From the NCBI GenBank assembly GCA_003514055.1, contig DOSG01000008.1:45895-109894 (forward strand): a stretch of DNA of 64,000 nt. Reading direction: 5' to 3'. The DNA is from Candidatus Yanofskybacteria bacterium (GTDB taxonomy: Bacteria > Patescibacteriota > Minisyncoccia > 2-02-FULL-40-12 > GWA2-44-9). Numbering within the stretch: the stretch's first letter is position 1; every line of letters starts with the position of its first letter. This document shows, in pieces, positions 2,507 through 61,065 of this stretch. Made by a program: the position numbers and the translations under genes. Below the pieces are notes generated by a model, which was not told where the DNA came from, made no database searches, and worked only from the letters and a program-made list of their open reading frames with translations.

Positions 2507-3260
2507 CTTTTATGTGCCATCTGGTTTCTTTTTTGAATAAAGCATCAAAGACATCGAAGCGACTCTTCGAACCTCTACGATGATAGTGATACATTTTAGA
2601 TTTAGGATAATAAATTACTCTGTATCCATTTTCCCAGAAGCGACGCGCCCAGTCAACATCACTCATATAGAGAAATAGATTTTCGTCCATTGAGCCAACT
2701 TTTTTTATAGCTTTTTTACTAACCATGATTGCTGAGCCCATCAACCAATCGGCATCAGTTTCTTTGAACAGATCGTGATCGTGCATTAAGAACTGCTCAA
2801 CTTCTTTTTTAAATAATCCTATTCTGCCGATAAAACTTCGACGATATATGGTAGTTAGTGGCGAATAGAATCTAAAGTATGAATCCTGATGACTGCCGTC
2901 AAAATTTAATAATTCCGGGCCGACTATGCCAATTTTAGGATCATCTTTAATCAATTCATACAAAGTCTCTACTGCACCTTCAAGCGGAATTATATCGGGA
3001 TTGATTACAAATACGTAATCGTTAACGCTGGCCTGAAGGCCAGCGTTAACGCCTTTGGTATAACCGATATTCTGGTCGAATGCCACTAATTTTATATCCT
3101 TAAACTCTTCATTGACGACATTCCGGGTCTCTATACTGCTGGCGATATCGATAACTATGATTTCGTATTTAAAATCTGCGCGAACAATACGTTTAAAAGA
3201 TTTCAAACACAGTCGTAATAGCGCCGGATTCTTATAATTGATGACGAGTATCGAAAGCAT
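2442..3260 (-). CDS. glycosyltransferase family 2
   Basis: N-terminal ILVINYKN...IIVIDIASS GT-A signature; start overlaps the LCP stop (TAATG coupling); its 3' end overlaps the ctpA start by about 40-65 nt. Confidence 0.85.
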   Translation of the reverse strand: MLSILVINYKNPALLRLCLKSFKRIVRADFKYEIIVIDIASSIETRNVVNEEFKDIKLVAFDQNIGYTKGVNAGLQASVNDYVFVINPDIIPLEGAVETLYELIKDDPKIGIVGPELLNFDGSHQDSYFRFYSPLTTIYRRSFIGRIGLFKKEVEQFLMHDHDLFKETDADWLMGSAIMVSKKAIKKVGSMDENLFLYMSDVDWARRFWENGYRVIYYPKSKMYHYHRRGSKSRFDVFDALFKKETRWHIKDAIKYFKKYGIRKSNITTRSI

Positions 3261-8666: not shown

Positions 8667-9608
8667 TTAATTTCCTATTTTGCCCATTTTATCTTTATAA
8701 AAATCGAATACTCCGTTTAGTATTGCCTGCGACCTTTCTTTTTCGATACCAAATATCAATTTGATTATCTGCTTTTTAATAATCCAGATGCTCCAGGGCC
8801 ACAATAATATTTGCACCCACCACGGACCAAATTTACGATTGAAATAAAGAGCGTTACGGTAATGATATCTCAACAGTAACGGAGACCCTAATTTTTTGGT
8901 TGAGGCCGATACCTTATGATTAATAGATACTCCTTCGGCTATGCCGATTGAAAACCCGGCTTGAGCCGCAGTCAATGATAAGTCGGCATCTTCAAAGTAC
9001 AGAAAATAGTCCTCATCCATTAGGCCAATCTTTTCAAACACATCACTAGATATGGCCGCGCCACCACCGATGGCGTAGATATTAGAAACACAATGGCCGC
9101 GTTGAATACAATGGCTGTCTTTTAGGCCGCAAAGACAGCCATTGTATTCAGGCGTATATATGTGTCCGAGGGTAGGCTTTAGCCACTTCACCAAGCCAGC
9201 ATAGGCCGTATGCCCACCCTCATCCAAAGGTATTGAAACTACCCCCCTTTTGAGCCTCAAAACGGCCTTTAGGCGAGCGATAAAGTCCTTTTCAGGTGTT
9301 GTATCGTTATTGATCAAAATCACCCATTTTGACCCTCCGGCCAAGGCCTTTTTTATGCCCACATTACACCCCCCAGAAAAGCCGAGGTTTTGACCATTTT
9401 TAATAACCACCAGGTTCTGCCAACCATGCTTTTTTTGATACTCATTGAGCCTATCTATGTCGGCCACGTTAGAACCATTCTCAACTACAATCAATTCGAA
9501 ATCAGAATCGGTTTGATTCTTAAATATATTTAGAAGATTAATCGTGTCTTCTGCTCCGTTATAATTTACAGTTACTATTGATATCTTCATCTTATCCATT
9601 AATACCAT
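8667..9608 (-). CDS. glycosyltransferase family 2
   Basis: KISIVTVNYNGAEDT...ELIVVENGS GT-A signature. Confidence 0.85.
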   Translation of the reverse strand: MVLMDKMKISIVTVNYNGAEDTINLLNIFKNQTDSDFELIVVENGSNVADIDRLNEYQKKHGWQNLVVIKNGQNLGFSGGCNVGIKKALAGGSKWVILINNDTTPEKDFIARLKAVLRLKRGVVSIPLDEGGHTAYAGLVKWLKPTLGHIYTPEYNGCLCGLKDSHCIQRGHCVSNIYAIGGGAAISSDVFEKIGLMDEDYFLYFEDADLSLTAAQAGFSIGIAEGVSINHKVSASTKKLGSPLLLRYHYRNALYFNRKFGPWWVQILLWPWSIWIIKKQIIKLIFGIEKERSQAILNGVFDFYKDKMGKIGN

Positions 9609-13287: not shown

Positions 13288-14031
13288 TTAATAGCGCCGT
13301 TCGAGATCGAACCAGAAGTAGAAACCGGAGTCAGGCGGATGGTAGTGGCCTGGGATATTGCAGAAACCTCTGATCCAGACCCAGCATTGACACCATTCAT
13401 CCCATTCCCAGTGTCCTGGAACGTGCATGTATCTATCTCCCCAGAGGTCATGGAATGGCCTCCAGAAGAAGTAGTACTTATTCGCTCCGAACCACCAGCC
13501 GGAGGAATACTCTCCACGCCCGTAATCACCGAACTGCGGATGTGGCAGCGGCGTAGGTCGAGTCCTTGGAATGGCATAGCGCGGAAGATCCCTCAGAGGG
13601 AATCGCTGATGCGTTCCTTGGCCACCACGAGGCAACTCGTTCGAATAGATGCCAGGCGGCCGCATCATCGCGCCCGGCCCGCGACCCATGCCTTGACCTT
13701 GTCCACGGCCTTGCTGGTCACCACGACCCATGCCTTGACCTTGACCACGTTGAGTACCTGGATCTTGCCGTGGCCGACTCCGCTGAGGATCACGGCCCAT
13801 GCCTTGACCCGAGCCTGAAGGTGGCCCCTGCCGTTGTGGCGGTTGCTGTCTTGGTTCGGCCCGAGGCGGTGGAGCCTGACGTGGCGGCGGCTGTTGCCGT
13901 GGCCTTTCTTGAGCTTGCGGGTCTCGAGTTGATCTTGGCTTGGCCTTTTCCCTTTCCTGGCTAGCCAAGAGTGCCGCCGATCCAAAGATCAGCAGCAGTA
14001 GAATCGAAAGAACTGTTCGTTTGCGGCGCAT
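13288..14031 (-). CDS. secreted low-complexity Pro/Gln/Arg/Gly-rich protein with GQGMGRG repeats and a Trp/Phe/Tyr-rich C-terminal domain
   Basis: Signal peptide MRRKRTVLSILLLLIFGSAALLA; GC-rich codons; three alternative-frame ORFs in the track are high-GC artefacts. Confidence 0.55.
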   Translation of the reverse strand: MRRKRTVLSILLLLIFGSAALLASQEREKAKPRSTRDPQAQERPRQQPPPRQAPPPRAEPRQQPPQRQGPPSGSGQGMGRDPQRSRPRQDPGTQRGQGQGMGRGDQQGRGQGQGMGRGPGAMMRPPGIYSNELPRGGQGTHQRFPLRDLPRYAIPRTRPTPLPHPQFGDYGRGEYSSGWWFGANKYYFFWRPFHDLWGDRYMHVPGHWEWDEWCQCWVWIRGFCNIPGHYHPPDSGFYFWFDLERRY

Positions 14032-14105
14032 AAGTCACCTCCATGATGTAGCGCTCGACTCATTAACTTTACGCCATCATTAGATACTGTCAAGCTGGCG
14101 AACTA

Positions 14106-14145
14106 AAATCAAAACCCCTCGTTATTTCGAGGGGTTTTGATTTTA
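14106..14145 (-). terminator. rho-independent terminator of the ribosomal operon (16-bp stem)
   Basis: AAATCAAAACCCCTCG-TTATTT-CGAGGGGTTTTGATTT; 42 nt downstream of the rpsI stop. Confidence 0.75.
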
Positions 14146-19052: not shown

Positions 19053-21149
19053 CTATTCAAATACTACCTCCATCTTAACCTTGGCTTTGTCTTTAGGTAC
19101 AGTTTTCACCCAAAAAGGCGAGAGACTTACTTTGGCTGAATCGATAACCTTATCGGCCTTGAGCTCCTGCAAGTAATCTCTAACTTGTGAATCCTTTTTG
19201 CCCAGCAAATCGACAAGGATCTTATCAGCATCAATCTTCTTATATTGCATGCCACGGACCATAGTCGTAAACGTTAAGGTGCTGGTTGCGTCATCGTAAG
19301 CTATATTAATGTAACTCTTATCAAGTTTATCCGCCTGCACCGTAGAGGTACCGCCCTTCTCTACATATTTAACTGCTAATTCGTCTATATCTTCCTCTCT
19401 GAAGCCAATAGTTTTAATAAGGCCCGTTAGAGTCATAGTAAAGGTATCGGCTGCCTCATCTACCTGAGCCGTAGATTGTGTGTCTTTAATCACGACATTG
19501 GCCGAATTAATAATCTTTAGATTGGCCGATTGAGATTTCAACGCCTCGGCCACGACTCTTTTAAGCTCTTCCATCAAAACATCTTTAGCCGCTTGATAAT
19601 CCTGATCAGTAACCACCTTAGCCTTACCGCTCGTACCACCCTTCATGGGCTGGACTGACTTACCATATACTTTCTTTAATTTCTCTTGGTCATTCTTCTC
19701 CTTGAAAGCTGATACGATGAAATCAGATGCGGCTATGTTGTATTCGATACCCGGCTTATCAGCTATTACTTCAACTTCCATAGTCCCAGAACTAGATTTG
19801 GCAGCCGGAACAGTTATAGACTTAAGAGTCCTAAAAACTAGACCCTCCTTGGTCTCGAACCTGGTAGTAGCTATTAATTGTTGAGTGACGGCCAAATCAT
19901 TATATACCACAATCTTGCCTCTAGCTTTTTGGGCTACATCTTTTTCTCCAGTAGCGGGAAAAGACTTTGAGGCACTCTTCTCAATATTAAATAATTGCCC
20001 AGGTATTTTGTTGGAGTTCGGATCAACAGATGAATATTTATCAGAAGCTGAAATTTTCAACTCTAATTTTAGTGGATCTTTGGCTGGTACGATCTTAATA
20101 TTGGCGGCACCGCTAACAATATATATAGTCACTAAAAGCACTCCCACCGCAAAAACACCAATGCCCACTATTGCTTTTGACATTCTTTTACCAGAAGGGT
20201 TCCTGTGTTTTGTGTACGAGCCAGCAGACTTATTACTAGATCTAAAAATCCCAGACCAGCTAAATTTTGATTCGGGCTTTCTCTTATCCCAAAGGTGCTC
20301 GCTTTCCCAAACTTCCGTTATCTCGTCCACGTTACCGCCTTTCTTACTATCCGATTCTTTTCTTACCTCAAGCTTTATCGGCTTATAACTGCCACTTTTT
20401 ATCTTTAAATTTTTTATATCTGTATCGGATTGAGATATTATGTCATCCAGATTCTTTCTAGCCATAGCTGTGACGACTTTATAATCATGGTCACTTCCAG
20501 AAAAAGATATTTCTTCGGCCTCTTCATCATCGTCAGTCTTTAGATCTTTATCGTCGAATTCCTCTTCCAACTCTTCAAGGTCTTCCTCTTCTTCAATTTC
20601 TTCTTCGACTTCCTTCTCTAGATCATCCTCTTCCAGCGCATCTTCTTCGATGTCAAGCTTTTTGCCTTTTTTCACGCCTTTATCTTCTTCGACATCTACC
20701 AAATCTTCGTCTAAGTCTTCATCTTCTTCGTGTAACCCACGATCACCTAAATTCTCAGAAACGAAATCTTCGTCATGATATACTTCGGGATTTTCTGGAT
20801 CATCATCATTAATAGAGCTATCATCAACCTGATTGACGGCTAGAATCGCCGACGGTTTTTTTGACCCAGATACCGGTGACAGCAAGATATCGAATTTGTA
20901 GCTCTTAGCCATCTCATTCATTTCTGGATTTGAGCTTAATAAAGATATGGATTTACCATTCTCGTTAGCTTCTTGGCTCAAGGTAGCAAAATTCTCTGGC
21001 CTACTGAAGGCTTTGGCCTTTTTTGGAACTATAAAAATAACTTCCTTGGCGGAAGCTTGCTTAAACAAATTTAATATTTCCTCGAACTTATCATCTTTGA
21101 GTACGTTTATAATCTTTGTCGATGACATATTAACTGAATTATACCACAA
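19053..21149 (-). CDS. large hypothetical membrane protein with an acidic (Asp/Glu-rich) cytoplasmic linker, one TM helix and a roughly 350-aa extracytoplasmic domain
   Basis: EEDLEELEEEFDD low-complexity stretch; TM helix AIVGIGVFAVGVLLVTIYIV. Confidence 0.55.
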   Translation of the reverse strand: MWYNSVNMSSTKIINVLKDDKFEEILNLFKQASAKEVIFIVPKKAKAFSRPENFATLSQEANENGKSISLLSSNPEMNEMAKSYKFDILLSPVSGSKKPSAILAVNQVDDSSINDDDPENPEVYHDEDFVSENLGDRGLHEEDEDLDEDLVDVEEDKGVKKGKKLDIEEDALEEDDLEKEVEEEIEEEEDLEELEEEFDDKDLKTDDDEEAEEISFSGSDHDYKVVTAMARKNLDDIISQSDTDIKNLKIKSGSYKPIKLEVRKESDSKKGGNVDEITEVWESEHLWDKRKPESKFSWSGIFRSSNKSAGSYTKHRNPSGKRMSKAIVGIGVFAVGVLLVTIYIVSGAANIKIVPAKDPLKLELKISASDKYSSVDPNSNKIPGQLFNIEKSASKSFPATGEKDVAQKARGKIVVYNDLAVTQQLIATTRFETKEGLVFRTLKSITVPAAKSSSGTMEVEVIADKPGIEYNIAASDFIVSAFKEKNDQEKLKKVYGKSVQPMKGGTSGKAKVVTDQDYQAAKDVLMEELKRVVAEALKSQSANLKIINSANVVIKDTQSTAQVDEAADTFTMTLTGLIKTIGFREEDIDELAVKYVEKGGTSTVQADKLDKSYINIAYDDATSTLTFTTMVRGMQYKKIDADKILVDLLGKKDSQVRDYLQELKADKVIDSAKVSLSPFWVKTVPKDKAKVKMEVVFE

Positions 21150-28387: not shown

Positions 28388-28894
28388 ATGCTCAAAAATA
28401 GCAGAGGAAAAATGAAAACTCTTCTGGCGATCATCTTCACGCTCCTCTTCATCGCCTGGGGCGTCGCAATGACCTTCAACTCGATCATGTTCAATCGAGG
28501 GTGTGGAGGCTACCTCAAACGGGCCGCCGACGCCAACACGACCAAGCTGGCGACCGAGAACCTCGAGATCGCGGTCAAGTACGCCAAGGACAATGGGCTG
28601 ACCTCCGGCTACACGTCGATCGTGTATCGGACTCCAGACGAAGACGTGGGCTTCTGGTACGACAACCTCAAGGAGTCACTGAAAGAGCTCCAGTCGACCA
28701 GCCCTGACGCCTCACGACTCGAGAAGACGAACGCTCTCATGAAGCTCAGAGAGACCCTTCTGGATTCCGGTCAGAGCACCAGCGTCACGGCTCCTGCCGG
28801 CATTAGCCGATACCCCCACAACGGCTTCTTGGCTCTGTGGGGATGGCTCTCGTTCATTCTGGCGATCATCTTCTGGCTCGGGGCTACCGTGTAG
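28388..28894 (+). CDS. hypothetical membrane protein encoded by a compositionally foreign GC-rich gene
   Basis: N- and C-terminal TM helices; codons dominated by G/C in third position, unlike its neighbours. Confidence 0.55.
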   Translation: MLKNSRGKMKTLLAIIFTLLFIAWGVAMTFNSIMFNRGCGGYLKRAADANTTKLATENLEIAVKYAKDNGLTSGYTSIVYRTPDEDVGFWYDNLKESLKELQSTSPDASRLEKTNALMKLRETLLDSGQSTSVTAPAGISRYPHNGFLALWGWLSFILAIIFWLGATV

Positions 28895-28912
28895 TAGCTA
28901 CTCGATCACCCT

Positions 28913-28958
28913 CCCTGGCGAAGCAAGCAGACAGCTGCTCTTCGCCAGGGCTTTTTTT
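28913..28958 (+). terminator. rho-independent terminator
   Basis: CCCTGGCGAAG-loop-CTTCGCCAGGG-CTTTTTTT. Confidence 0.7.
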
Positions 28959-31900
28959 ATTCCATCATTTTACGTAGCGCACAATATTCGCAGTCTTTTT
29001 CTTTGCATCCCTTATCCCAAAAATCCAGATTCATTATTTCTTGAGATGTTTTAATGACTAATTCTTTAAGTTCTACGACCTCATCGGACGTGACATAGAA
29101 ACTTTCTTTCTTATATCTCCCCTTCTCGTCCGGCTCTATGAAATCAATGTCACCCGATATCATTTTAAATTTCTTGCCTTCAGCATAATTATTCAATAAC
29201 AAATTGTAGAATACCAGCTGTCTTTTTATATCACCATTAGATGTTTGAGTAGTACCCTCAATTTCGCCACGAGTTTTCTGCCTACCAGTTTTATAATCAA
29301 CCACGTTCACCTCTCCCGAGTCATTCAGTATCTCAATTTTATCTATCTTACCAGTAATCCTAACGTCCGCGGCAACGACTATCCCTGGTATGTTGAATTC
29401 ATTCAAAAGATTAGCCCTCCAGTGACCAACGTAATTATCGTAATAACCAGAAAGCGATTTCTCTCCTTTCTGAAGCACTTCTTCAAAATCACTCTCCTTA
29501 AGGGGTTCTCTCTGTAAATATGTGACAAACTTACTCAATAGCATCTCTTTATTAGCTTCGCCTTCCTTGATTTTATCGAAGAAATCTTTGAGCGCACCGT
29601 GAATAGCTGTGCCATACATTTGATGCTTATCTTTGGCTTTTGGTATGCGTAACAGATTAGTATAGAAATACTGCCACGGACATCTTAGATAGTTGTTTAA
29701 GCCCGTAACTGATAACCCATTCTTAGTGAATAAGTCTTTTATGAATTCTTTGTCTTTTATACTTGTTCCAGATTTCACTTTTGGCGTAAACATAATTGTT
29801 CTGTCTCTTTCAAATCCATCTTCATACTCATCGGCAACGACGGTTTCTATGAGATCGGATTTAATCTCCTGGATAAATTGAGATGGTATCTGCTGCTTAC
29901 CGGAAAGTGCTTCCTGGGCATATGTAATTGTCACCAATTTCTTAGCTCGAGTTATGGCCACATAAAATAATCTCCTCTCGTCATCATTTCCATCATCATC
30001 TGCAAGATCCTTATCCTTACAAAGGGCGCCCCTGAGGGGCGCCCTTTGTAACCCAAGAGAATAGACCGAGGCAGGCAAAGACAACAGGTTAGTTCGCCTC
30101 TTATTACCCCAGTGGCCGTCAAAAGCATTCACTATATATACATATTCGAACTCCTGTCCTTTCGATCTGTGGGCGGTCATGAGTCTTATATTCTTTGTGC
30201 CCGATTGGCCTAAACTCTTTTTAATAAGTAGATTATGTATCTGAAGGGTGTCTATATATTTTATAAAATCGCGTAGATCGTAATCTTTGTGTTTCTCCAA
30301 CAATGACTTGATCTCGTTGAATAATCCATCCAATTTTTGCATCTTCTCAGCTACGTCCTTTTCTTTCATTATGTGAGCTAGAAAGCCAGACTCGTTTATC
30401 ATCAACTCGAAGAATTCCGATAAGCCCTGGTTTTTCTGAATCGTAGCCCACCCCGCTACTTTTTTATAGAAATCATGAATTTTATCGGCTGATTCGAGAT
30501 CAATACGCTCAAGATTCTTCTTATGTTTTACAATATCGTGTACGGGAATCTTTTCTTTGTTTGAATAGTTTATGATTTTGTATACGTCCAGCGGATCAAT
30601 ACCTAGAAAATCAATATGCATAGATTCGAGTATCCTAGCCTGAGATCCGAAATTATCCACCAGGCGCATTATCAGCATAAGCTTCTTAATATCGGGATCA
30701 GACAAAATATCCTGATCAGATTCTATAGCAAAAGGCACGTCAACTCTTTCAAGCATATCCGCAAAAGTAAAAACATCTTTATTGTCACGATACAGGATGG
30801 CAATCTCGGACGGCACAACGCCCTTAGAAATTAAATTCTTTATGCTTTTAGCCACGAAATACGCCTCAACTTTTGGCTTTGAAAAGGATAAAAGCCTTAT
30901 CTTTTCCTCTTCGTATCTCATATTAGCTTGTAGTTGCTTATCTCCGGCCAAGATACTATGGGCCGAATCTAGAATATTTTGAGTTGAGCGATAATTATCT
31001 TCCAAGACAATTAGTCTTGCCTTAGGATACAAATTCTTGAAATATAGAAAATTCTCTATAGATGCACCCTGGAATCTGAATATGGCCTGTTTCTCGTCGC
31101 CAACCACGAATATGTTTGGATTAGGATGGAAATTACAGAGTAGCTCCAGAACCTTATTCTGGGCATTATTTGTATCCTGGTGTTCGTCTACTAGCATGTA
31201 CTGGTGTTGCTCCTGCAATATCAATAAAAGATTCTGATTCTGACTGAGTTCTCGCAGAACCTCCATAATCATATCGCTATAGTCATACATCTTATTCTCA
31301 GCCAACTGCTTCTGATAAAATCCGTAGACCACGGCCAACTCCTTATTTTTTCGAATCTGCTTTTCAATTTTCTGATATTCACCCTTCATCTTACCCTTGT
31401 GTGCACCTTTCTCATGATAAAGATCGTCAATCGATGTAAAGTCTTTCTCCTCTTTCTCTACTAGCAGCTTAAATCCTTCCGGGCTAAGACCTTCGCGCTT
31501 AAGATCGTTTAAAGATTTCAAAATTTCTCGCGTGTAATAAAGCGGATCACCGAATGGCTTGAGATCCTTAAGAGGTAGGCCATCGATGGCTTTTTCGATG
31601 ATATTTATCTGATCAACTTCAGTAATATTCTGCGACCCAATGATTGCCGGAAATTCTTCGGGGTAATTTTTAATCACGTCATTGCAAAAACCATGAAAAG
31701 TACTTATCACCACCGAATATCCTGGAGTGCCAATAATCTCGACTAATCGTCTGCGCATTGAAGATACGCCAGATTCTGTGAATGTAAGCGCTAAAATATT
31801 TTCCGGTTCAGTATCGGTCTTCTTTAGTATATTAGCGATGCGCAAAGTCAAAATCTGGGTCTTGCCAGTTCCGGGTCCAGCCACCACCATCACAGGCCCA

Positions 31901-31983: not shown

Positions 31984-32016
31984 TTTTTAAACAGATCCCC
32001 GTTATATATGGACTTG

Positions 32017-33000
32017 CTATTCGGTCATATTAATAGACGTATCCACTCCGAATTGTTTAAAACTACCTTCCCCAAATGTTCTTTCAATTATTCTTGCTAT
32101 TCTCAATAATCGGCCCGTCATTACAGCTTCTGCAAATAATTTAAACACATCTTCCTCTGAAGAGAATTCATCTGAATTTTTTACATAAATTTCTCTAACC
32201 AGACTACCTAGTTCTTTTCTCTCCTCGCTGTAGGCGTAGCCTTCTCTTAGCTTGATAGATGGGCCATCTTTTGTTTTGAAATCTCTGACCACGGCCAAGT
32301 CGTCTGCCGCAATCTCACGATTCCCATCTTCTGCAGATTTTTTGGCAATTTCTGATCTTTTTAATTCCCTTTCTTCGTATTCTTTTTTAGTAAGAGCCAG
32401 TCTACCGAAGTATCTTTTATCAAATCTTTTCATCAATTCCTCCGTTATCGCTTCGTTTAAATTATGAAAAAATATTTTATTCTTTTTCTCAGAAAAAATT
32501 TCGAAACCAATTCTTCTAGGCCCGAGAATTACCAATTCTCCTCCGTCGTCTTCGTCTTTCTCGAAGCGAAATTTTTTCCCTCTGCTTGCATTCTGGATAG
32601 ATTGGAAGGAATTAAAATGTAATAGCTCATGCACCACGCGTATCGCGGCTTTGAGATCGCTGTAACTTGAATCTACGAAGATAAAAATGGCCTGAGACTC
32701 AGGGCTGTAGAGTCCATTAAATTCTTGGGTCTTGTCGCTGGCACTTTTAGGAAGATTGTGCCTATCAATCACATGGATATTCTTGGCAGGCACATCGATA
32801 GGCTCTCCTCCATATTCGGAGACAAATTCTCTTAGAAAAGAATTAATCTGTCCCAGAGCTTCGATCCATTCGGGACTTTTAGCTACTTCATAAGACTTAG
32901 TTACGTTGCTATTTAATATATCACCGTACAAGTCCTGAAAAACTTCAGCGTCAGTCCTTAGTACTTTAGATATCCCGGATTTTCTTTCAAATTTATTCAT
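32017..33000 (-). CDS. hypothetical protein with an HExxH motif (possible Zn-dependent peptidase; an ImmA/IrrE-like fold not excluded)
   Basis: VVHELLHFNS at aa 124-128; 33-nt gap to the helicase-nuclease gene suggests co-transcription. Confidence 0.5.
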   Translation of the reverse strand: MNKFERKSGISKVLRTDAEVFQDLYGDILNSNVTKSYEVAKSPEWIEALGQINSFLREFVSEYGGEPIDVPAKNIHVIDRHNLPKSASDKTQEFNGLYSPESQAIFIFVDSSYSDLKAAIRVVHELLHFNSFQSIQNASRGKKFRFEKDEDDGGELVILGPRRIGFEIFSEKKNKIFFHNLNEAITEELMKRFDKRYFGRLALTKKEYEERELKRSEIAKKSAEDGNREIAADDLAVVRDFKTKDGPSIKLREGYAYSEERKELGSLVREIYVKNSDEFSSEEDVFKLFAEAVMTGRLLRIARIIERTFGEGSFKQFGVDTSINMTE

Positions 33001-33094: not shown

Positions 33095-33123
33095 AATCAA
33101 AAGCCGCCTGCAAGGCGGCTAGG
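33095..33123 (-). terminator. terminator hairpin, one of two exact 29-nt copies
   Basis: AATCAAAAGCCGCCTGCAAGGCGGCTAGG, identical to 33808-33836. Confidence 0.6.
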
Positions 33124-33753
33124 CTAGCCTTTACGCCACTCCCAACACAAGAATCGGCTTTTACGCATGCCAACTGGATAGGGATAATATGAGAACTCCA
33201 CGATCAGTGGTCTAATCCAGTGGAATCTCGTCAATTCGAAAGCGCGGTTTCTCAAAATCTCAGGCACCCATTCTGGCCACGGCTGCTGCAACCTTCTTTG
33301 GGCCGTCTTGAGAGTATCGATATCTCCATGCTCTATGTCTCTACCATAGCCAGATCCAGTCAAATATTCTAACTGCATCTCCACATGCTGGAATGCCTGA
33401 GAGATCCTTATCGTCCCCTGATAAATATTATCGGCTCGCGGCAACGTTTCATTGAATAAAGAAAAATAATTAGGGTTAGTTTCTTTAACGAAGCCGACTA
33501 TCGCATCCCAATCTTTCTGCTCTGGCTTAAATGGTCCGCGACCCTTATCATCTGCTCTAAATGTTCGACAGGAGATTAATCCACCACGCTCATCGAAAAA
33601 CTTTCTCAATTGATCGAAATCAATCCCTCCTGGAGGAAAAGCGATGTAATTCGGGATATTCTGACCAAACTCAAAAAGCTGCCACATACGATGATGCTTG
33701 AGAGGATATTCCAATTCTTGTCCAACCGAGACAATGTTAGATAGAGCCGCCAT
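33124..33753 (-). CDS. hypothetical protein (209 aa)
   Basis: ORF track; Trp/aromatic-rich; no family recognised. Confidence 0.5.
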   Translation of the reverse strand: MAALSNIVSVGQELEYPLKHHRMWQLFEFGQNIPNYIAFPPGGIDFDQLRKFFDERGGLISCRTFRADDKGRGPFKPEQKDWDAIVGFVKETNPNYFSLFNETLPRADNIYQGTIRISQAFQHVEMQLEYLTGSGYGRDIEHGDIDTLKTAQRRLQQPWPEWVPEILRNRAFELTRFHWIRPLIVEFSYYPYPVGMRKSRFLCWEWRKG

Positions 33754-33807
33754 AAGTCATCCTTTCAATGAGCACGAAGATAAATTATCACTATAAACAT
33801 TAAAGTC

Positions 33808-33836
33808 AATCAAAAGCCGCCTGCAAGGCGGCTAGG
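33808..33836 (-). terminator. terminator hairpin, second exact 29-nt copy
   Basis: AATCAAAAGCCGCCTGCAAGGCGGCTAGG. Confidence 0.6.
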
Positions 33837-33847
33837 AATGCGAAGTT

Positions 33848-34177
33848 CTAAAAAATATCTTCGCTCGGGGTATTGTTTGAAGCTCTGCCCTTCACGCTGA
33901 CAGTAGTATTCTCCGGATGAGCACATAAAGCATGGAGATCAATAGCTAAGATGTCAAAATAATTTTCACAGGTAGGACATTGAGCACAGCGACAATTAGG
34001 ACATTCGCCGGCCTTGTTGCCTTTCCAGCCAGGTTGATGGCAGAGACAACGACAAGGACTAGCATATTGATTAACGACACCCAGCATACTATTGCCACCA
34101 AGAAGATCTTCAATAATGTCGTGGGCCATATTGATTTCCCTTTTCAAAATACTAGTTCTATTCCAACATATTTCCAT
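33848..34177 (-). CDS. Cys-rich small protein (CxCxC...CxxCxCxxCxxC); the true start is probably at an internal Met
   Basis: Eleven Cys within about 35 residues (CRCLCHQPGWKGNKAGECPNCRCAQCPTC); upstream segment contains a Gly-Gly pair. Confidence 0.45.
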   Translation of the reverse strand: MEICWNRTSILKREINMAHDIIEDLLGGNSMLGVVNQYASPCRCLCHQPGWKGNKAGECPNCRCAQCPTCENYFDILAIDLHALCAHPENTTVSVKGRASNNTPSEDIF

Positions 34178-34190
34178 AGTTTAGTAAATA

Positions 34191-35180
34191 GTGTATACTG
34201 TTTCTACTATGTTAGTCGATGAACTAAAAATACGCGTTAGAGCCGGAAATGGCGGTCATGGCACCGTCGCTTTTAGCAAAATAAAAATGGCCCTTGGGCC
34301 AACCGGAGGTCGTGGCGGCAAAGGTGGCAGTGTTTGGCTAGAAGGAATTGCCGATATCGGTGGCCTAACTAAACTTAAGTTTGCCAAGACTTTTGAAGCC
34401 ATTGATGGCAAGAATGGTGGCCACCATCTAAACGATGGCCCCGACGGAGCAGACATAACCATTAAGGTTCCGGTTGGTACAGTAGCTAAGAATCTAACGA
34501 CCAAGAGAGAGATTGAAGTCACTAAAATCGGCGAAAGAGTTTTAATCGCGCAAGGTGGCCGTGGCGGTAGAGGTAATTTCCATTTTAGATCTTCGACCAA
34601 TACTAGCCCACAGCAATCTCAGCCCGGAACAAAAGGTGAGAAATATAATTTTAGACTAGAATTAAAACTTATTGCCGATGTCGGCCTAGTTGGCATGCCC
34701 AATGTTGGTAAATCATCTCTGATTAATGAACTCACAAAAGCCAAGAGTAAGGTCGCTAATTATCCATTCACAACTCTCGAAGCGCATCTTGGTTCTTATT
34801 ACGGATTGATCTTAGCTGACATTCCTGGAATTATTGAAGGTGCCCATGAAGGCAAGGGTCTTGGCATAAGATTTTTAAAACACGTAGAGAGAACTAAGGT
34901 TCTATTCCACCTCGTCTCAGCCGAGTCAGAGACCCCAGTTACCGATTATGAGGTAATGCGCGCAGAACTTGGAGCCTACAAAGAGGAACTACTAAACAAG
35001 AAGGAATACGTCTTCATCTCAAAATCAGACCTAATCAAACCAATTGAATTAAAAAAGATAATCACAAAGCTCAAAAAATTAAATAAAAATATACTTCCCC
35101 TCTCAATTCACGATTGGGACAGTCTAGAGGCAGTTCGCAAGATCCTCAACGAAATCCAAGCAGAAAAAACAGCCACCTAG
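34191..35180 (+). CDS. obg: GTPase Obg (likely true start is the ATG at 34209)
   Basis: Gly-rich Obg fold GNGGHGTVAF...GGRGGKGG; G1 motif GMPNVGKSS. Confidence 0.9.
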   Translation: MYTVSTMLVDELKIRVRAGNGGHGTVAFSKIKMALGPTGGRGGKGGSVWLEGIADIGGLTKLKFAKTFEAIDGKNGGHHLNDGPDGADITIKVPVGTVAKNLTTKREIEVTKIGERVLIAQGGRGGRGNFHFRSSTNTSPQQSQPGTKGEKYNFRLELKLIADVGLVGMPNVGKSSLINELTKAKSKVANYPFTTLEAHLGSYYGLILADIPGIIEGAHEGKGLGIRFLKHVERTKVLFHLVSAESETPVTDYEVMRAELGAYKEELLNKKEYVFISKSDLIKPIELKKIITKLKKLNKNILPLSIHDWDSLEAVRKILNEIQAEKTAT

Positions 35181-36224: not shown

Positions 36225-37601
36225 ATGTCCAACGGAGAGGTAAAACAAAATGGATCGAACGGAAATGGAAATGGCAACGGCTCGCCTCGCGGCGAAACAG
36301 TAAACGGGCATCCTGAAAAACCCAAATATAAATTTCTTTTTATAAGCTGGGAAAGCTTGAGTGGAGATTTGGCCTGGCAAATAAAGAAAGAAGGCCATGA
36401 AGTCAAATGCTACATAAAAGATCTCGGCGGAACTAATGTCTACGATGGTATCTTAGAAAAAGTAGACGACTGGAAATCTTTCGTAGATTGGGCTGACGTT
36501 ATTGTCTTTGATGACATCTGGTTTGGCGATCAAGCTGACAAGTTAAGAAAGGCAGGAAAAGCTGTAATCGGTGGCAGCTCCTATACCGATAGATTAGAAG
36601 ACGATCGAGAGTTCGGACAATCAGAGATGAAAAGAATGGGCATGAATATTCTTCCGCATTGGGATTTTAGTGACTACGACGAGGCCCTGAAATTTATTTC
36701 CGAGAACCCAGGCCGCTATGTTTACAAGCCTTCTCTTGACGTCTCTTCCGATTGGAAAGGCCTTCTATTTATAGGCAAAGAAGAAGATGGCAAGGATTTA
36801 CATCAAATTCTATCCAGCAATAAAACCGTACTAGGTAAAAAAATAAAATCTTTTCAGCTACAGAAATATGCTTCTGGAGTCGAGGTCGGTTGTGCTGCGT
36901 TTTTTAATGGTCAAGATTTTATAATGCCCCTAAACATCGCCTTTGAGCACAAAAGACTTTTCCCCGGAGAGATTGGCCCCATGACTGGCGAAATGGGTAC
37001 TTCGATGTTCTGGTGCGGTCCAAATAATTTTTTCCGATCAACTCTTGAAAAAATGCTCGAACCTCTGCGCGCCTCTGGATATGTCGGATACATTGATATT
37101 AATTGCATAGTAAACGCTCGTGGCATTTATCCGCTAGAGTTCACCTGCCGTTTCGGTTACCCTACGATCTCCATTCAGCAAGAAGGGATACTGAACGATT
37201 GGGGAGAATTTTTTCATGCCATTGCCAACCATAAATCCTATGAATTGCGCACAAGAAAAGGATTCCAAGTCGGCGTCGTGGTTGCCACTCCACCATTTCC
37301 GTATGACGATAAGTCCGAGTTGGCGATTTACAACGACACATCTATTCTATTTAAAAAGCCCAATTATGAAGGCGTCCATCTAGGCGATGTAAAAATAGTC
37401 GATGGTGATTGGAAGATAGATGGCACTTGCGGATACGATTTGGTTGTTACGGGATCGGGCACGACGATGGAAGATGCTCGCCGTATGACCTACAACAGGA
37501 TCGACAACATTATGATTCTAAACATGTTCTACCGCACAGACATCGGCGCTACTTGGGCCGAAGATCGAGACAAGATGCACAGCTGGGAATACATTTACTA
37601 A
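36225..37601 (+). CDS. ATP-grasp enzyme of the phosphoribosylamine--glycine ligase (PurD) family, divergent, with an Asn/Gly-rich N-terminal tail
   Basis: PurD-like layout with a GEIGPMTGEMGTS loop resembling the GPNTGGMGAYSP motif; NGNGNGNG low-complexity N-terminus. Confidence 0.55.
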   Translation: MSNGEVKQNGSNGNGNGNGSPRGETVNGHPEKPKYKFLFISWESLSGDLAWQIKKEGHEVKCYIKDLGGTNVYDGILEKVDDWKSFVDWADVIVFDDIWFGDQADKLRKAGKAVIGGSSYTDRLEDDREFGQSEMKRMGMNILPHWDFSDYDEALKFISENPGRYVYKPSLDVSSDWKGLLFIGKEEDGKDLHQILSSNKTVLGKKIKSFQLQKYASGVEVGCAAFFNGQDFIMPLNIAFEHKRLFPGEIGPMTGEMGTSMFWCGPNNFFRSTLEKMLEPLRASGYVGYIDINCIVNARGIYPLEFTCRFGYPTISIQQEGILNDWGEFFHAIANHKSYELRTRKGFQVGVVVATPPFPYDDKSELAIYNDTSILFKKPNYEGVHLGDVKIVDGDWKIDGTCGYDLVVTGSGTTMEDARRMTYNRIDNIMILNMFYRTDIGATWAEDRDKMHSWEYIY

Positions 37602-43016: not shown

Positions 43017-43021
43017 ACAAA

Positions 43022-43060
43022 GTATACTAAAACGCGCCTACTTGGCGCGTTTTAGTATAC
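43022..43060. terminator. 17-bp perfect palindrome (terminator) after tRNA-Arg
   Basis: GTATACTAAAACGCGCC-TACTT-GGCGCGTTTTAGTATAC. Confidence 0.65.
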
Positions 43061-43101
43061 TTATACTTTTTCTAAAATTTCGTTAGTACCCATATTCAGC
43101 A

Positions 43102-47476: not shown

Positions 47477-47529
47477 TCTCGCCTCTTTTCAAAGACCACG
47501 TTAACTCTATTAAATCATTTGCTCGCAAT

Positions 47530-47560
47530 AAAACAACCCCGCCTAGGCGGGGTTGTTTTA
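47530..47560 (-). terminator. terminator downstream of tRNA-Gly
   Basis: AAAACAACCCCGCC-TAG-GGCGGGGTTGTTTT. Confidence 0.7.
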
Positions 47561-47593
47561 TTGGATTGAATGAGTTCATGTCATCACAATTTG

Positions 47594-57680: not shown

Positions 57681-59588
57681 ATGATCAAAAAGATATCATT
57701 ATTTATTCTCGCCTTTACGGTCGGCTTTGGATTATTTACATCTTCAGCTAAAGCAGAAGAATGTCCAGCAAGTGGAAATTATGCAGACAAGCTAAGAGGC
57801 GCCATGGATGCCATTCTAAAAGCAAATCCGAGTCTTGCCAATTCAACCAATACAGAAGAAAATAGTTTCGACTTCATAAGCTTGGTAGCAAAAAAGCCGC
57901 CGACGGGATTCAATGTAACAGATCAGGTCTTAAATGGAAACGGCAATCCTAATAGTGGAGATCTATTAGCAATATGGAAAAAGGGGGATGCTAAGATGGA
58001 GCGCTACGACGTGATAGCGGCCGTTGGTGCGGGAGATAGAACGATAGAATCCGCAGTAACCACTCAATTCGTCGGCTTAATACCTCTTAATTGTACAAGT
58101 AGCGGAGGAGGCAAGGAATGTAGTTGCGGTACCTCCGAACAAAATGCATCCAGACAGTGTGCTGTTGATGTTTATCAGGCTGGCGCTAGAGCAAAAGATC
58201 CAATTGCCATCGGAGCAGAATGCCGCAGTGCCGTCTGGTTCCAAAGAAATACCAATATAGCATTGTCCTGTTCGTCAGACTTTATATTTAGAGGGACACC
58301 CGCAAATCAGTGGAAGACATGGAGCGAAAACCAAATTGAGAAAGTCGTTAGGGCCTGTGATGGAGACAACGTGGCAAACGCCGATAAGATATTAGCAGCC
58401 CTTGAGGTAGTCTGGAGTTCTTGTTTGCCCGATAGAAAAGGAATTAGCTGTGTCTGCCAAACAGCAGAAGATGGAGAAAATAATTCATGCGCGATGTTTA
58501 TGGGAGAGATAGGCCCACCCACGATTACCTCTTTCACTCCGACAAAGGCAACGATCGGTACAGAAGTGTACATCGAAGGCACTCACCTGCCAGACAAGAT
58601 TGAGCTTCAGTCTTCCTCGCAAAAATACACCCTCGCTAGCCACGTTAATTCGACTTTCACGGGAACGACATTTACAGTTGATCCATCAGTAGAAGATGGA
58701 TCATACACTCTTTCAGTAGTTGGAATAAATGGAAGCGCTACAGCCAATCAAAAGCTGGTCATCACAGCTGGCGGCCCAGACTTCGCCGGCCGCACATTGC
58801 CAGCCACTCCGACTGGATATCCAGAAATGGGTGGCCTGTTGGGCATGATATTAACATGGTCTATTAGATTATTAGGCATATCCATATTTATTGTGGTCTT
58901 CTTAGCTGGCGCAGAATGGTTCTTTAATCAAGGCAATCCATCGATGTGGACTGGAGTTAAGACTAAGATACAAAATGCCATCATCGGAGCCATTATGCTT
59001 TTATCAGCCTATCTTATTCTATACACTATCAATCCCGACTTAGTTCAAGGCACATTCGAACTGCCAGGCATAACAGGAGGGAATACGGCACCAACAGCAA
59101 GTCCAAGCACTAGCCCATCGACACCGCCTACACCAACATCGTCCGGAACTCCACCCGAAGCTTGCAAACAAAATGTAGGCGGGACAGCATCTTCTGGCTG
59201 TACTCAAGCAACCTGCGTCGACATATCTAACTACACCCCTACCCATGGCTGCGAAAGTAATGGTGGCAAATGTTACGCATCATCTCAGGCAGCCCAAAAG
59301 ATACAGACTCTCGTTTCACGATTCAATGCCCTGTCAGGTGGTAGTTGTTCTCTACGAATATCTTCGACAATCCAAGGCCCAGGCGGACCGAGTATATCTG
59401 GATGCCACAAGCCAGGATCTGCCAATGCTGGGACATGTGCCGACTTCAACGTATCTCCGCACGGTTCTTGTTATAAATTCTTCTACCAGGCAGCAAAAGA
59501 AGCTAGCGTGGTATCTTTTCTAGATGAATACGTGCCAGCATGTATTCCTGCCAATGCTACCGGAGGGAATATCCACGTAAATTTCTAA
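57681..59588 (+). CDS. large secreted Cys-rich surface protein with an IPT/TIG-like segment, an internal two-helix hydrophobic hairpin, a Pro/Thr/Ser linker and a second Cys-rich domain
   Basis: Signal peptide; about 30 Cys; ITSFTPTKATIGTEVYIEGTHL; helices LLGMILTWSIRLLGISIFIVVFLAG and AIIGAIMLLSAYLILYTI; APTASPSTSPSTPPTPTSSGTPP linker. Confidence 0.55.
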   Translation: MIKKISLFILAFTVGFGLFTSSAKAEECPASGNYADKLRGAMDAILKANPSLANSTNTEENSFDFISLVAKKPPTGFNVTDQVLNGNGNPNSGDLLAIWKKGDAKMERYDVIAAVGAGDRTIESAVTTQFVGLIPLNCTSSGGGKECSCGTSEQNASRQCAVDVYQAGARAKDPIAIGAECRSAVWFQRNTNIALSCSSDFIFRGTPANQWKTWSENQIEKVVRACDGDNVANADKILAALEVVWSSCLPDRKGISCVCQTAEDGENNSCAMFMGEIGPPTITSFTPTKATIGTEVYIEGTHLPDKIELQSSSQKYTLASHVNSTFTGTTFTVDPSVEDGSYTLSVVGINGSATANQKLVITAGGPDFAGRTLPATPTGYPEMGGLLGMILTWSIRLLGISIFIVVFLAGAEWFFNQGNPSMWTGVKTKIQNAIIGAIMLLSAYLILYTINPDLVQGTFELPGITGGNTAPTASPSTSPSTPPTPTSSGTPPEACKQNVGGTASSGCTQATCVDISNYTPTHGCESNGGKCYASSQAAQKIQTLVSRFNALSGGSCSLRISSTIQGPGGPSISGCHKPGSANAGTCADFNVSPHGSCYKFFYQAAKEASVVSFLDEYVPACIPANATGGNIHVNF

Positions 59589-60180: not shown

Positions 60181-61065
60181 TTACTGACTCCTCCTCAACA
60201 AGGCCTGCTGAGTCTTGGTCAGGTTCTTCACGTCGTAAAGAGCGTAATTTGAATATTCTGCATTCTTGGCTACTGCCTTAACCAGAACATCTTTCTGAAC
60301 TCTGGTTAGACCCTTCATGTCGCGAAGAGTACGATATGCATATCTTACTTCTTTGGTCACTACTTTAATTAAGACATCTTTCTGAATTCTGGTCAGGCCG
60401 CCTACCTCGTAAAGAACGTCATGCGCATGTTCTGGGTTTTTGGCCAAACCCCTGACTAGAATGCCTTTCTGAGTGTTGGTCAGGTTCTTCACGTCACGAA
60501 GAACGTCAGATGCATATTCTGCACTCTTGGCCACGCCCTCAATCAAGATATCTTTTTGAGTCTCGGGCAGATCGCCTACCTCGCAAAGGACAGAAGACGC
60601 ATCGGTCACGTCTTCAGCTACACGAGGAATACAGATATCCATGAAGGCCGATCTCCAGAGCTCGGGAGCTCTTATGAGAATGTAACTGGCATCGTCTGGC
60701 TGAAGAGATCGTTTGAGCATTTTGCTCCAAGTATCAAAAAGAGTTTCGGGGGATTCAAGATGAATGGCAATTTCAGGTGGGAATTGAGTTTTATCCCAAA
60801 AATCCCTGTTTTCGAATTGAGGCAAACTTTCTGTCACTGGGCCATAGAAAGCATCAATAGCACTGTGCCCCAATATGTCGTTATGCATCGTACCTCGTAG
60901 AGTCTCTCTCCCATGAGGAGAAAATACATCTTTGTCCGTCAGAAAGTAGATATTCCCTTTAATATCCTTCTTCCAAGAGATGAAGTCGCACATGACACGC
61001 TTCCTTTCAAGAGAACTGAGGTGAATATACCACGCCCAAGCGGCATATGTCAAGTAGAGCATCAT
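60181..61065 (-). CDS. protein with 4.5 tandem 29-aa repeats (DVLxDVKxLTxxQKDxLxxxxAKNxEYAx) after a roughly 150-aa N-terminal domain
   Basis: Repeats visible by eye in the ORF translation; no known family assigned. Confidence 0.5.
   Translation of the reverse strand: MMLYLTYAAWAWYIHLSSLERKRVMCDFISWKKDIKGNIYFLTDKDVFSPHGRETLRGTMHNDILGHSAIDAFYGPVTESLPQFENRDFWDKTQFPPEIAIHLESPETLFDTWSKMLKRSLQPDDASYILIRAPELWRSAFMDICIPRVAEDVTDASSVLCEVGDLPETQKDILIEGVAKSAEYASDVLRDVKNLTNTQKGILVRGLAKNPEHAHDVLYEVGGLTRIQKDVLIKVVTKEVRYAYRTLRDMKGLTRVQKDVLVKAVAKNAEYSNYALYDVKNLTKTQQALLRRSQ

Follow-up and report, generated by a model that had tools for sequence, protein, structure and literature searches.

Concerted evolution as the probable origin of an exact 29-nt terminator repeat in the obg-helicase interval of a Candidatus Yanofskybacteria genome

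Genes and predicted terminators between obg and the helicase gene

The window, as we call the whole 64-kb stretch of DNA analysed, comes from an uncultured groundwater bacterium of Candidatus Yanofskybacteria (Parcubacteria, candidate phyla radiation). Between its obg gene and a helicase gene lie three tandem minus-strand genes, which encode a Cys-rich, a 209-aa and a 327-aa protein, together with two copies of a 29-nt sequence, T1 and T2. The locus was compared with that of a relative, L001, which shows approximately 80% nucleotide identity to the window. The features of the interval are as follows:

34209..35180, plus strand: obg (GTPase), the left anchor, divergent from the Cys-rich gene; Pfam GTP1_OBG and MMR_HSR1
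33848..34129, minus strand: Cys-rich gene, probably of 93 aa; the reading frame is open back to an ATG at 34177 (109 aa)
33808..33836, minus strand: T1, predicted terminator ending the Cys-rich gene; stem AGCCGCCT/AGGCGGCT, loop TGC, tail TTTTGATT (exact 29-mer, terminator scan, folding)
33782..33813, minus strand: promoter-like element of the 209-aa gene, overlapping the T1 tail; TTGATT-18-GATAAT or TTGACT-16-TGaTAATTT (consensus scan only)
33124..33753, minus strand: 209-aa gene, encoding a small stand-alone protein of predicted ATP-grasp fold
33095..33123, minus strand: T2, predicted terminator ending the 209-aa gene (identical 29-mer, terminator scan, folding)
32017..33000, minus strand: 327-aa gene with a HELLH (HExxH) motif, absent from L001
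28957..31983, minus strand: gene of a UvrD/PcrA-type helicase with a C-terminal PD-(D/E)XK nuclease domain, the right anchor; NCBIfam pcrA/uvrD/addA, Pfam UvrD-helicase and PDDEXK_1

Obg orthologues begin at MLVDE, and UW46_C0001G0133 of Candidatus Yanofskybacteria GW2011_GWF1_44 has the same sequence as the 327-aa protein. The Rfam search of the window for non-coding RNA returned only four tRNAs.

As the original prediction stated, the 29-mer AATCAAAAGCCGCCTGCAAGGCGGCTAGG occurs in two exact copies in the 64-kb window, at 33095-33123 and 33808-33836, at a distance of 713 nt. No further match with three or fewer mismatches was found in the window (0 expected in shuffles), and apart from a diverged coding tandem repeat the 29-mer is its sole exact dispersed repeat of such length. 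The bases next to the two copies differ, which sets the maximal exact repeat at 29 nt. Local alignment of 64-68 nt on each side gave no similarity between the copies above shuffled controls, and a larger duplication enclosing the 29-mer was rejected for this reason. Three further independent assemblies (L029-L031) match the locus at 100% identity, so the repeat is no assembly artefact.

Read on the minus strand, each copy has the form CCT-AGCCGCCT-TGC-AGGCGGCT-TTTTGATT, that is, an 8-bp stem with six G-C pairs, a 3-nt loop and the U-tract TTTTGATT, with a predicted folding energy of about -14 to -16 kcal/mol. T1 sets in 11 nt past the stop codon of the Cys-rich gene, and T2 abuts the TAG stop codon (33124-33126) of the 209-aa gene. 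Stem, loop, U-tract and the position downstream of the stops all agree with the earlier claim that the 29-mers act as terminators of these two genes, and both copies are predicted Rho-independent terminators. They share with this class a G+C-rich 8-bp stem, a short loop and a U-tract, the placement of the whole 0-14 nt past the stop and location on the coding strand, as well as compensatory stem changes in L001. What distinguishes them from Rho-independent terminators generally is that two neighbours are identical over 29 nt, whereas the other terminators of the window all differ.

REP elements carry a conserved GTAG-type head and, like the 29-mer, are short extragenic palindromes found after genes. 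This likeness, and the extent of the search (64 kb of a contig of at least 445 kb), are consistent with a reading of the 29-mer as one member of a dispersed family of palindromic repeats, REP-like or terminator-like and possibly mobile, whose other copies would lie elsewhere in the genome. We consider such a family quite unlikely. Only two, adjacent copies are present in the 64 kb, at sites that are already terminators in L001; unlike REP/BIME elements they have no GTAG-type head, and no transposase Pfam match, RAYT-type (Y1) included, was obtained among 23 scanned window ORFs (nearly all of those of at least 90 aa within approximately 8 kb, plus the largest of the window). No further copies were found in the sequence collections either: 22 unrelated genomes have the 21-nt core once each, and we read these as convergent generic hairpins. 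A wide spread of the 29-mer was rejected as well, with a degenerate 24-mer matching one unrelated metagenome contig and no viral contig. The single occurrences of the core, together with the stems of some 30 other hairpin terminators of the window, which all differ from that of the 29-mer, also speak against a common terminator consensus, an objection that the original prediction had raised against itself.

Three states of the locus

Three arrangements of the interval were observed. The window (state A) has, in order, the Cys-rich gene, T1, the 209-aa gene, T2 and the 327-aa gene. L001 (state B) has the Cys-rich gene, a terminator T1′, the 209-aa gene and a terminator T2′, followed directly by the helicase gene, without the 327-aa gene. 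State C has a homologue of the 327-aa gene only and lacks both other genes of the interval. In L032, L033 and L035, which cover the whole interval, this homologue lies between obg and the helicase gene (split in L035); in L034 and L036 it lies on contig ends, on the obg side and the helicase side, respectively.

Amino acid identity between the window and L001 is 97% for the Obg N-terminus and 87% for the helicase, as against 68-78% and 63% between the window and the state-C genomes, and the phylogeny of the flanking genes places the window and L001 in one clade and L032-L036 in another. Because the flanking genes join the window with L001 against the state-C genomes, the 327-aa gene counts as ancestral, with a deletion in L001. 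The obg-helicase interval is a variable islet. Across the loci examined, the Cys-rich and 209-aa genes are either both present or both absent, and the 327-aa gene varies separately. The presence/absence comparison proposed with the original prediction found no genome that lacks the 209-aa gene alone: L001 has both genes of the pair, the five loci of the other clade have neither, and the two vary as a unit.

Two other histories of the locus were considered and rejected. The window is not a recombinant of 'pair-only' and '327-only' genomes, as its helicase is nearest to that of L001 (87% vs. 63% amino acid identity). A foreign origin of the Cys-rich and 209-aa pair was discarded on finding no G+C anomaly, no PHROG or PADLOC match and no relative in viral contigs.

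The 209-aa proteins of the window and L001 are 91% identical, with a dS of 0.65 between their genes. Four-fold degenerate sites are conserved at 35/49 positions in the 209-aa gene, 22/34 in the Obg N-terminus and 56/131 in the helicase gene, the difference between the 209-aa and helicase genes being significant (p = 0.0008). The lower synonymous divergence of the 209-aa gene may come from lineages having later exchanged the left part of the locus, or from constraint on synonymous sites. It is not explained by the copying of terminators discussed below, nor is it needed for it.

Origin of the identity between the two terminators

The terminators of L001 are T1′, TCTAGCCCCGCTTAGCGGGGCTTTTGTTT, and T2′, TCTAGCCGCCCTACGGGCGGCTTTTTTGT, and their offsets from the stop codons equal those of T1 and T2. 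In the window as in L001, the stem of the second terminator (T2, T2′) sets in 3 nt past the stop, which makes its position orthologous in the two genomes. Compared with the 29-mer of the window, identity is 19/29 for T1′ and 22/29 for T2′, and T1′ and T2′ match each other at 21/29 positions. The promoter-like region of the 209-aa gene is 88-91% identical between the window and L001, T1 itself only about 60%.

The original prediction offered the insertion of a cassette as one origin of the repeat. According to this reading, the 209-aa gene would have entered with its promoter and terminator by Campbell-type recombination at a terminator, leaving two direct 29-nt repeats. Direct repeats around one gene are indeed the product expected of single-crossover integration, the gene content of the interval is demonstrably variable, and the dS of the 209-aa gene is below that of the helicase gene. 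Yet L001 has the 209-aa gene at the same site, with a homologous promoter region and the same offsets, and the terminators on its two sides are not identical. The 209-aa genes have diverged to a dS of 0.65, an age by far too great for a 29/29 identity to have persisted untouched, and none of the loci examined has the Cys-rich gene while lacking the 209-aa gene. Insertion of a cassette is therefore very unlikely in our view. As L001 has both sites and the 209-aa gene together with non-identical terminators, sites and gene predate the exact identity.

Integron attC sites are 57-141 nt long, have R″/L″/L′/R′ boxes and lie near an IntI integrase. The locus resembles integron cassettes in its variability and in its two tandem units of one gene each, with a hairpin site at each 3′ end, but its site is 29 nt long, with a perfect 8-bp stem and no R/L boxes, no integrase was found in the scanned ORFs, the genes have promoter-like elements of their own and the 209-aa gene is not independently variable. 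The 29-mer is not an attC site and very probably no insertion scar, and within the 64 kb and the public collections it shows no REP-like spread.

Among the terminator pairs of the window, identity of at least 21/29 is rare (17/1,035, 1.6%). Seven of the best eight of these pairs are a single palindromic site read on both strands, and the eighth is the 29-mer pair. Because identity at this level is rare, T1 and T2 are probably paralogous. At positions 1, 11, 15 and 27 the copies agree within each genome and differ between the window and L001, with positions 11 and 15 forming a compensatory stem pair. Judged from the aligned sequences, these four positions read as a signature of concerted evolution.

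Assigned by lineage, all 17 differences belong to L001 and 0 to the window. Under plain retention from an identical ancestral pair, the chance of this distribution is approximately 8e-6 (one-sided p), or 2e-4 with compensatory pairs counted as single events. The dS between the window and L001 lineages is at least 0.65, a divergence too large for two neutral 29-mers to have kept their identity. In this respect the original prediction, which took exact identity as a sign of a recent copying event, is borne out.

Selection could in principle have kept ancient duplicates identical, for example if one protein or RNA recognised both hairpins, and the identity does span the loop, the tail and the 5′ flank in addition to the stem. 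Both terminators of L001 have, however, drifted, loop and stem core included, with compensatory changes, which points to selection on structure and not on sequence; the divergence between the lineages likewise indicates that the sequence is not constrained. We regard preservation by selection as barely credible.

The reading that we prefer, at a probability of about 0.6, is a recent copy of one older paralogous terminator over the other in the window lineage, with the 209-aa protein most likely an ATP-dependent ligase or kinase and the Cys-rich product most likely zinc-binding. Two old paralogous terminators would already have been present in the common ancestor of the window strain and L001, and one of them would recently have been overwritten in the window lineage, by short-patch gene conversion or a template switch. 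The two hairpins have microhomology in common, CTAGCC at the 5′ end and GGCTTTT at the 3′ end, and the expected outcome would be identity over exactly the terminator unit, with nothing beyond. The identity would then have arisen secondarily, through concerted evolution in an islet prone to rearrangement, and would not mark an insertion of the 209-aa gene. The Cys-rich and 209-aa genes are inherited together, but each appears to have a transcript of its own. The second origin named in the original prediction, a terminator duplication, comes near to the data, with the amendment that both terminator sites predate the identity and that one was probably copied over the other.

Established examples of concerted evolution or ectopic gene conversion are rRNA operons, tuf genes and repeated intergenic elements. 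The terminators show the same pattern of identity within a genome and divergence between genomes, with four positions fixed in both copies of one lineage. In contrast to usual conversion, the tract measures 29 nt with approximately 7 nt of microhomology per end, which is below the usual RecA-dependent length, and template switching at the hairpins would for this reason be the more likely route. As the copies have no flanking homology, classical RecA-mediated conversion is unsupported and we infer the mechanism.

The stem of the 29-mer resembles T2′, and its tail resembles T1′. In L001 the tail of T2′ adjoins the deletion junction of the 327-aa gene, which slightly favours copying from T2 to T1, as judged from the single close relative that carries the gene pair. 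A search of the literature on terminator conversion or duplication gave nothing pertinent. The terminator pair would represent a small, clean case of concerted evolution on terminator hairpins, and an ordinary event. It also calls for caution: short exact intergenic repeats are not automatically insertion scars, and here a single relative sufficed to date the gene independently of the repeat.

The 209-aa and Cys-rich proteins

Besides the three-state islet, the analysis adds an ATP-grasp assignment for the 209-aa protein and a corrected start and likely zinc binding for the Cys-rich protein. The more useful by-products are a new family of ATP-grasp proteins of approximately 200 residues and an uncalled Cys-rich gene; current concepts are unchanged by either.

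The original prediction found no assignable family for the 209-aa protein. This holds at the sequence level, with no match in Pfam, NCBIfam, PADLOC or PHROGs and no sequence-level match in the PDB, but not at the level of the predicted fold. A word-indexed search returned only four relatives. By profile search of 1.84 billion representatives, 151 proteins were obtained at E ≤1e-3, mostly stand-alone and 190-215 aa long. The family is mainly metagenomic, with members in Parcubacteria-type contigs; those looked up are all unnamed or hypothetical, one being annotated as Parcubacteria group bacterium.

With 5 sequences the AlphaFold model was of low quality (pLDDT 59), and an alignment of 67 sequences was needed. 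The central and C-terminal alpha+beta domains that define the ATP-grasp fold are both present in the predicted structure. The closest comparisons were with the beta subunit of an NDP-forming acyl-CoA synthetase (4xyl_B; 12.7), the ATP-grasp domain of a protein acetyltransferase (12.5), succinyl-CoA synthetase beta (11.9) and the ATP-binding domain of rifampin phosphotransferase (11.4), and the fold matches include the RiPP macrocyclases MdnB/C, CdnC and PsnB. Such structure matches suggest that the 209-aa protein is a minimal ATP-grasp domain without the pre-ATP-grasp N-domain. The nearest kind are the ATP-grasp domains that likewise have no such N-domain, namely those of NDP-forming acyl-CoA synthetase beta, succinyl-CoA synthetase beta and the nucleotide-binding domain of PPDK, PEP synthase and rifampin phosphotransferase. 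The 209-aa protein differs from the known ATP-grasp families in standing alone and in having no Pfam, NCBIfam or PDB sequence match, and the model identifies it as a predicted member of a previously unrecognised small ATP-grasp family.

Six residues do not vary across 59 members (K19, N32, R63, E186, G195 and W204), and E205 and R138 are almost as constant. Three long relatives have the 209-like domain N-terminal to PPDK_N and PEP-utilizers domains, and this fusion hints at phosphotransfer chemistry. As to activity, an ATP-dependent ligase or kinase is the most likely prediction. A sequence link between the family and PPDK_N itself was rejected, as the Pfam matches lie downstream of the 209-like domain and hhalign gave no significant result. 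By eye, the motifs of the family bear a resemblance to PPDK_N that can serve as a lead only. The gene neighbourhoods of homologues are inconsistent, with metK in two loci and DUF763 and SPP elsewhere.

For the Cys-rich gene, independent gene calls place the start at the ATG at 34129, giving 93 aa, and the L001 orthologue has 92 aa. The length of 109 aa given originally is correct for the longest ORF, but the gene itself probably starts at 34129. As we read the alignments, the 16 extra codons of the 109-aa ORF fall in the promoter region between obg and the Cys-rich gene, where a stretch of approximately 50 nt is identical to L001, which suggests that they are regulatory rather than coding.

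The Cys-rich protein and its L001 orthologue, the two sequences known, are 61% identical, with eight invariant cysteines and three invariant histidines. Common to both are the N-terminus ..DLLGGNSMLG, the pattern CxCxCH-x12-CPNCxCAxCPxC and H-x4-HP, so the motif CxCxC-x12-CxxCxCxxCxxC and the upstream Gly-Gly were correctly described at the outset. The Cys/His skeleton is conserved and the remainder evolves fast; a dN/dS of approximately 0.15 argues that the gene is real, if fast-evolving. In the C-terminal half both sequences have a C2H2-like arrangement, CPxC-x11-H-x4-H, which makes the metal binding initially proposed plausible, on profile matches that all stay below threshold: zf-Di19 scored 18.7 bits against a cut-off of 27.5 (E 0.002, L001 orthologue only), and the ZFAT match had an E of 0.7.

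With Di19-type C2H2 zinc fingers and small Cys-rich metal binders the protein shares CPxC-x11-H-x4-H together with a second cluster, CxCxCH...CPNCxC. It differs from C2H2 zinc fingers in its sub-threshold profile matches; its spacing is C-x2-C-x11-H-x4-H, that of the fingers C-x2-4-C-x12-H-x3-5-H. As far as its residue pattern indicates, the product is most likely a small intracellular zinc-binding protein. A marginal likeness to insect defensins (ARD1/heliomicin, E 0.02-0.03) was put down to chance; as we read the alignment, only 3/6 defensin cysteines pair up, and the match is weaker in the L001 orthologue, where the similar residues are less conserved.

A ribosomally synthesised peptide was the other role proposed for the Cys-rich product. 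It could be a precursor with a double-glycine-type leader (M..D.I.DLLGG) that the ATP-grasp ligase would modify, much as graspetide ligases or RimK do, and that the 327-aa HExxH protein would perhaps process. The conserved ..DLLGG N-terminus and Cys skeleton, the ATP-grasp fold of the neighbour with the macrocyclase matches named above, and the joint presence or absence of the two genes are consistent with this. We nonetheless judge a precursor peptide highly improbable. In the Pfam scan of the 23 ORFs no maturation gene was found, be it for a C39 peptidase, an ABC exporter or another function; the C39 peptidase-domain exporter that accompanies double-glycine bacteriocins is thus not among them. 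In graspetide families a precursor is conserved beside the ligase, whereas homologues of the 209-aa protein elsewhere (L026-L028, L037-L040) have no similar Cys-rich neighbour.

A further possibility, which we regard as very doubtful, is that the Cys-rich and ATP-grasp proteins form a lineage-specific two-gene module that moves through the islet as a unit, in which the ATP-grasp protein would ligate or phosphorylate the Cys-rich protein or use it as a zinc-dependent partner. If this were true, the 209-aa family, with at least 151 clusters, some fused to PPDK_N and PEP-utilizers domains, would constitute a new phosphotransfer or ligase class. The Cys-rich gene has been left uncalled in two GenBank records of the host organism.

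Gene calls for the Cys-rich gene

The ENA contig L002 (ERZ27254750 k141_470723; 1,572 nt) matches the window with 100% identity from 34698 to 33127, stopping 4 nt before it would reach terminator copy T2. This position of the contig end could be a coincidence, or the assembly graph could have broken there because of the repeat or of a difference between strains. In the ENA call for the Cys-rich gene, P0005 (L002 570-893, corresponding to window 34129-33806), the TAG stop was translated as Gln, and the predicted product continues across the terminator (…DIFQNFAFLAALQAAFD). For this 1.5-kb contig the gene caller evidently picked a TAG-recoded genetic code. The reading of TAG as Gln is probably an artefact of the caller, because the window's ORFs are uninterrupted when translated with the standard bacterial code. 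The Cys-rich gene was left uncalled in two NCBI entries for the same strain, L030 (GCA_001794775.1) and L031 (GCA_003483035.1), at locus positions 2872-3153, although it is conserved in L001, the relative at about 80% nucleotide identity, with a dN/dS of approximately 0.15.

The 327-aa gene and its terminator

32017-33000, minus strand: 327-aa gene; its product contains HELLH, an HExxH motif, at about residues 124-128

Weak matches of DUF6647 and Hvo_1808 to the 327-aa protein run across the HELLH stretch, and the protein may be an uncharacterised metallopeptidase. Among loci of the other clade, the homologue is found in two pieces (104 and 199 aa) in L035, and the corresponding 240-aa product of L036 has a HepT-like Pfam match. 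In the other clade the 327-aa gene has a terminator of its own, AGATCTGTTTGAATAGCAGATCTTTTT, at its 3′ side (L032 2081-2134 and L033 2238-2292). Comparison with these two loci showed that the left half alone, GGGGATCTGTTT, has been kept in the window at 31984-32016. Judging from this remaining half, the terminator of the 327-aa gene seems to have been lost in the window, and transcription may continue from this gene into that of the helicase.

Other hairpins and palindromes

A terminator at 5430-5453 of L025 (Ga0136588_1000001), CTAGCCGCCCTACGGGCGGCTTTTT, is identical over 25 nt to T2′, the counterpart of T2 in L001, and is likewise preceded by GCTAG. L025 is an unrelated 160-kb metagenome contig with a G+C content of 39% over the 8-kb locus examined, and the identity is probably due to convergence of simple hairpins. 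Several perfect palindromes of 18-20 nt were observed in the window (9103-9150, 14104-14145, 43020-43062, and 47526-47563); these look like bidirectional terminators, lying between convergent genes or beside tRNA genes.

Neighboring genes, composition and repeats

36225-37601, plus strand: a second ATP-grasp protein, 458 aa and of conventional type (GARS_A/GARS_C-like), at 2 kb from the locus
60208-60559, inside the minus-strand ORF 60181-61065: four tandem 87-nt units, 66-79% identical
13671-13809: short repeats with a 42-nt period, CCACGACCCATGCCTTGACC…, where ORFs overlap on both strands

The 458-aa ATP-grasp protein, which has an Asn/Gly-rich stretch at its N-terminus, has been kept by both clades. 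A local G+C peak of 0.56-0.58 (28400-29000), vs. 0.42 for the whole window, spans a 168-aa ORF (28388-28894) with no match in the Pfam scan. Two large ORFs, 19053-21149 (minus strand, 698 aa) and 57681-59588 (plus strand, 635 aa), likewise gave no Pfam match at E ≤1e-3. The four 87-nt units encode 29-aa repeats in a 294-aa protein, itself unmatched in the Pfam scan.
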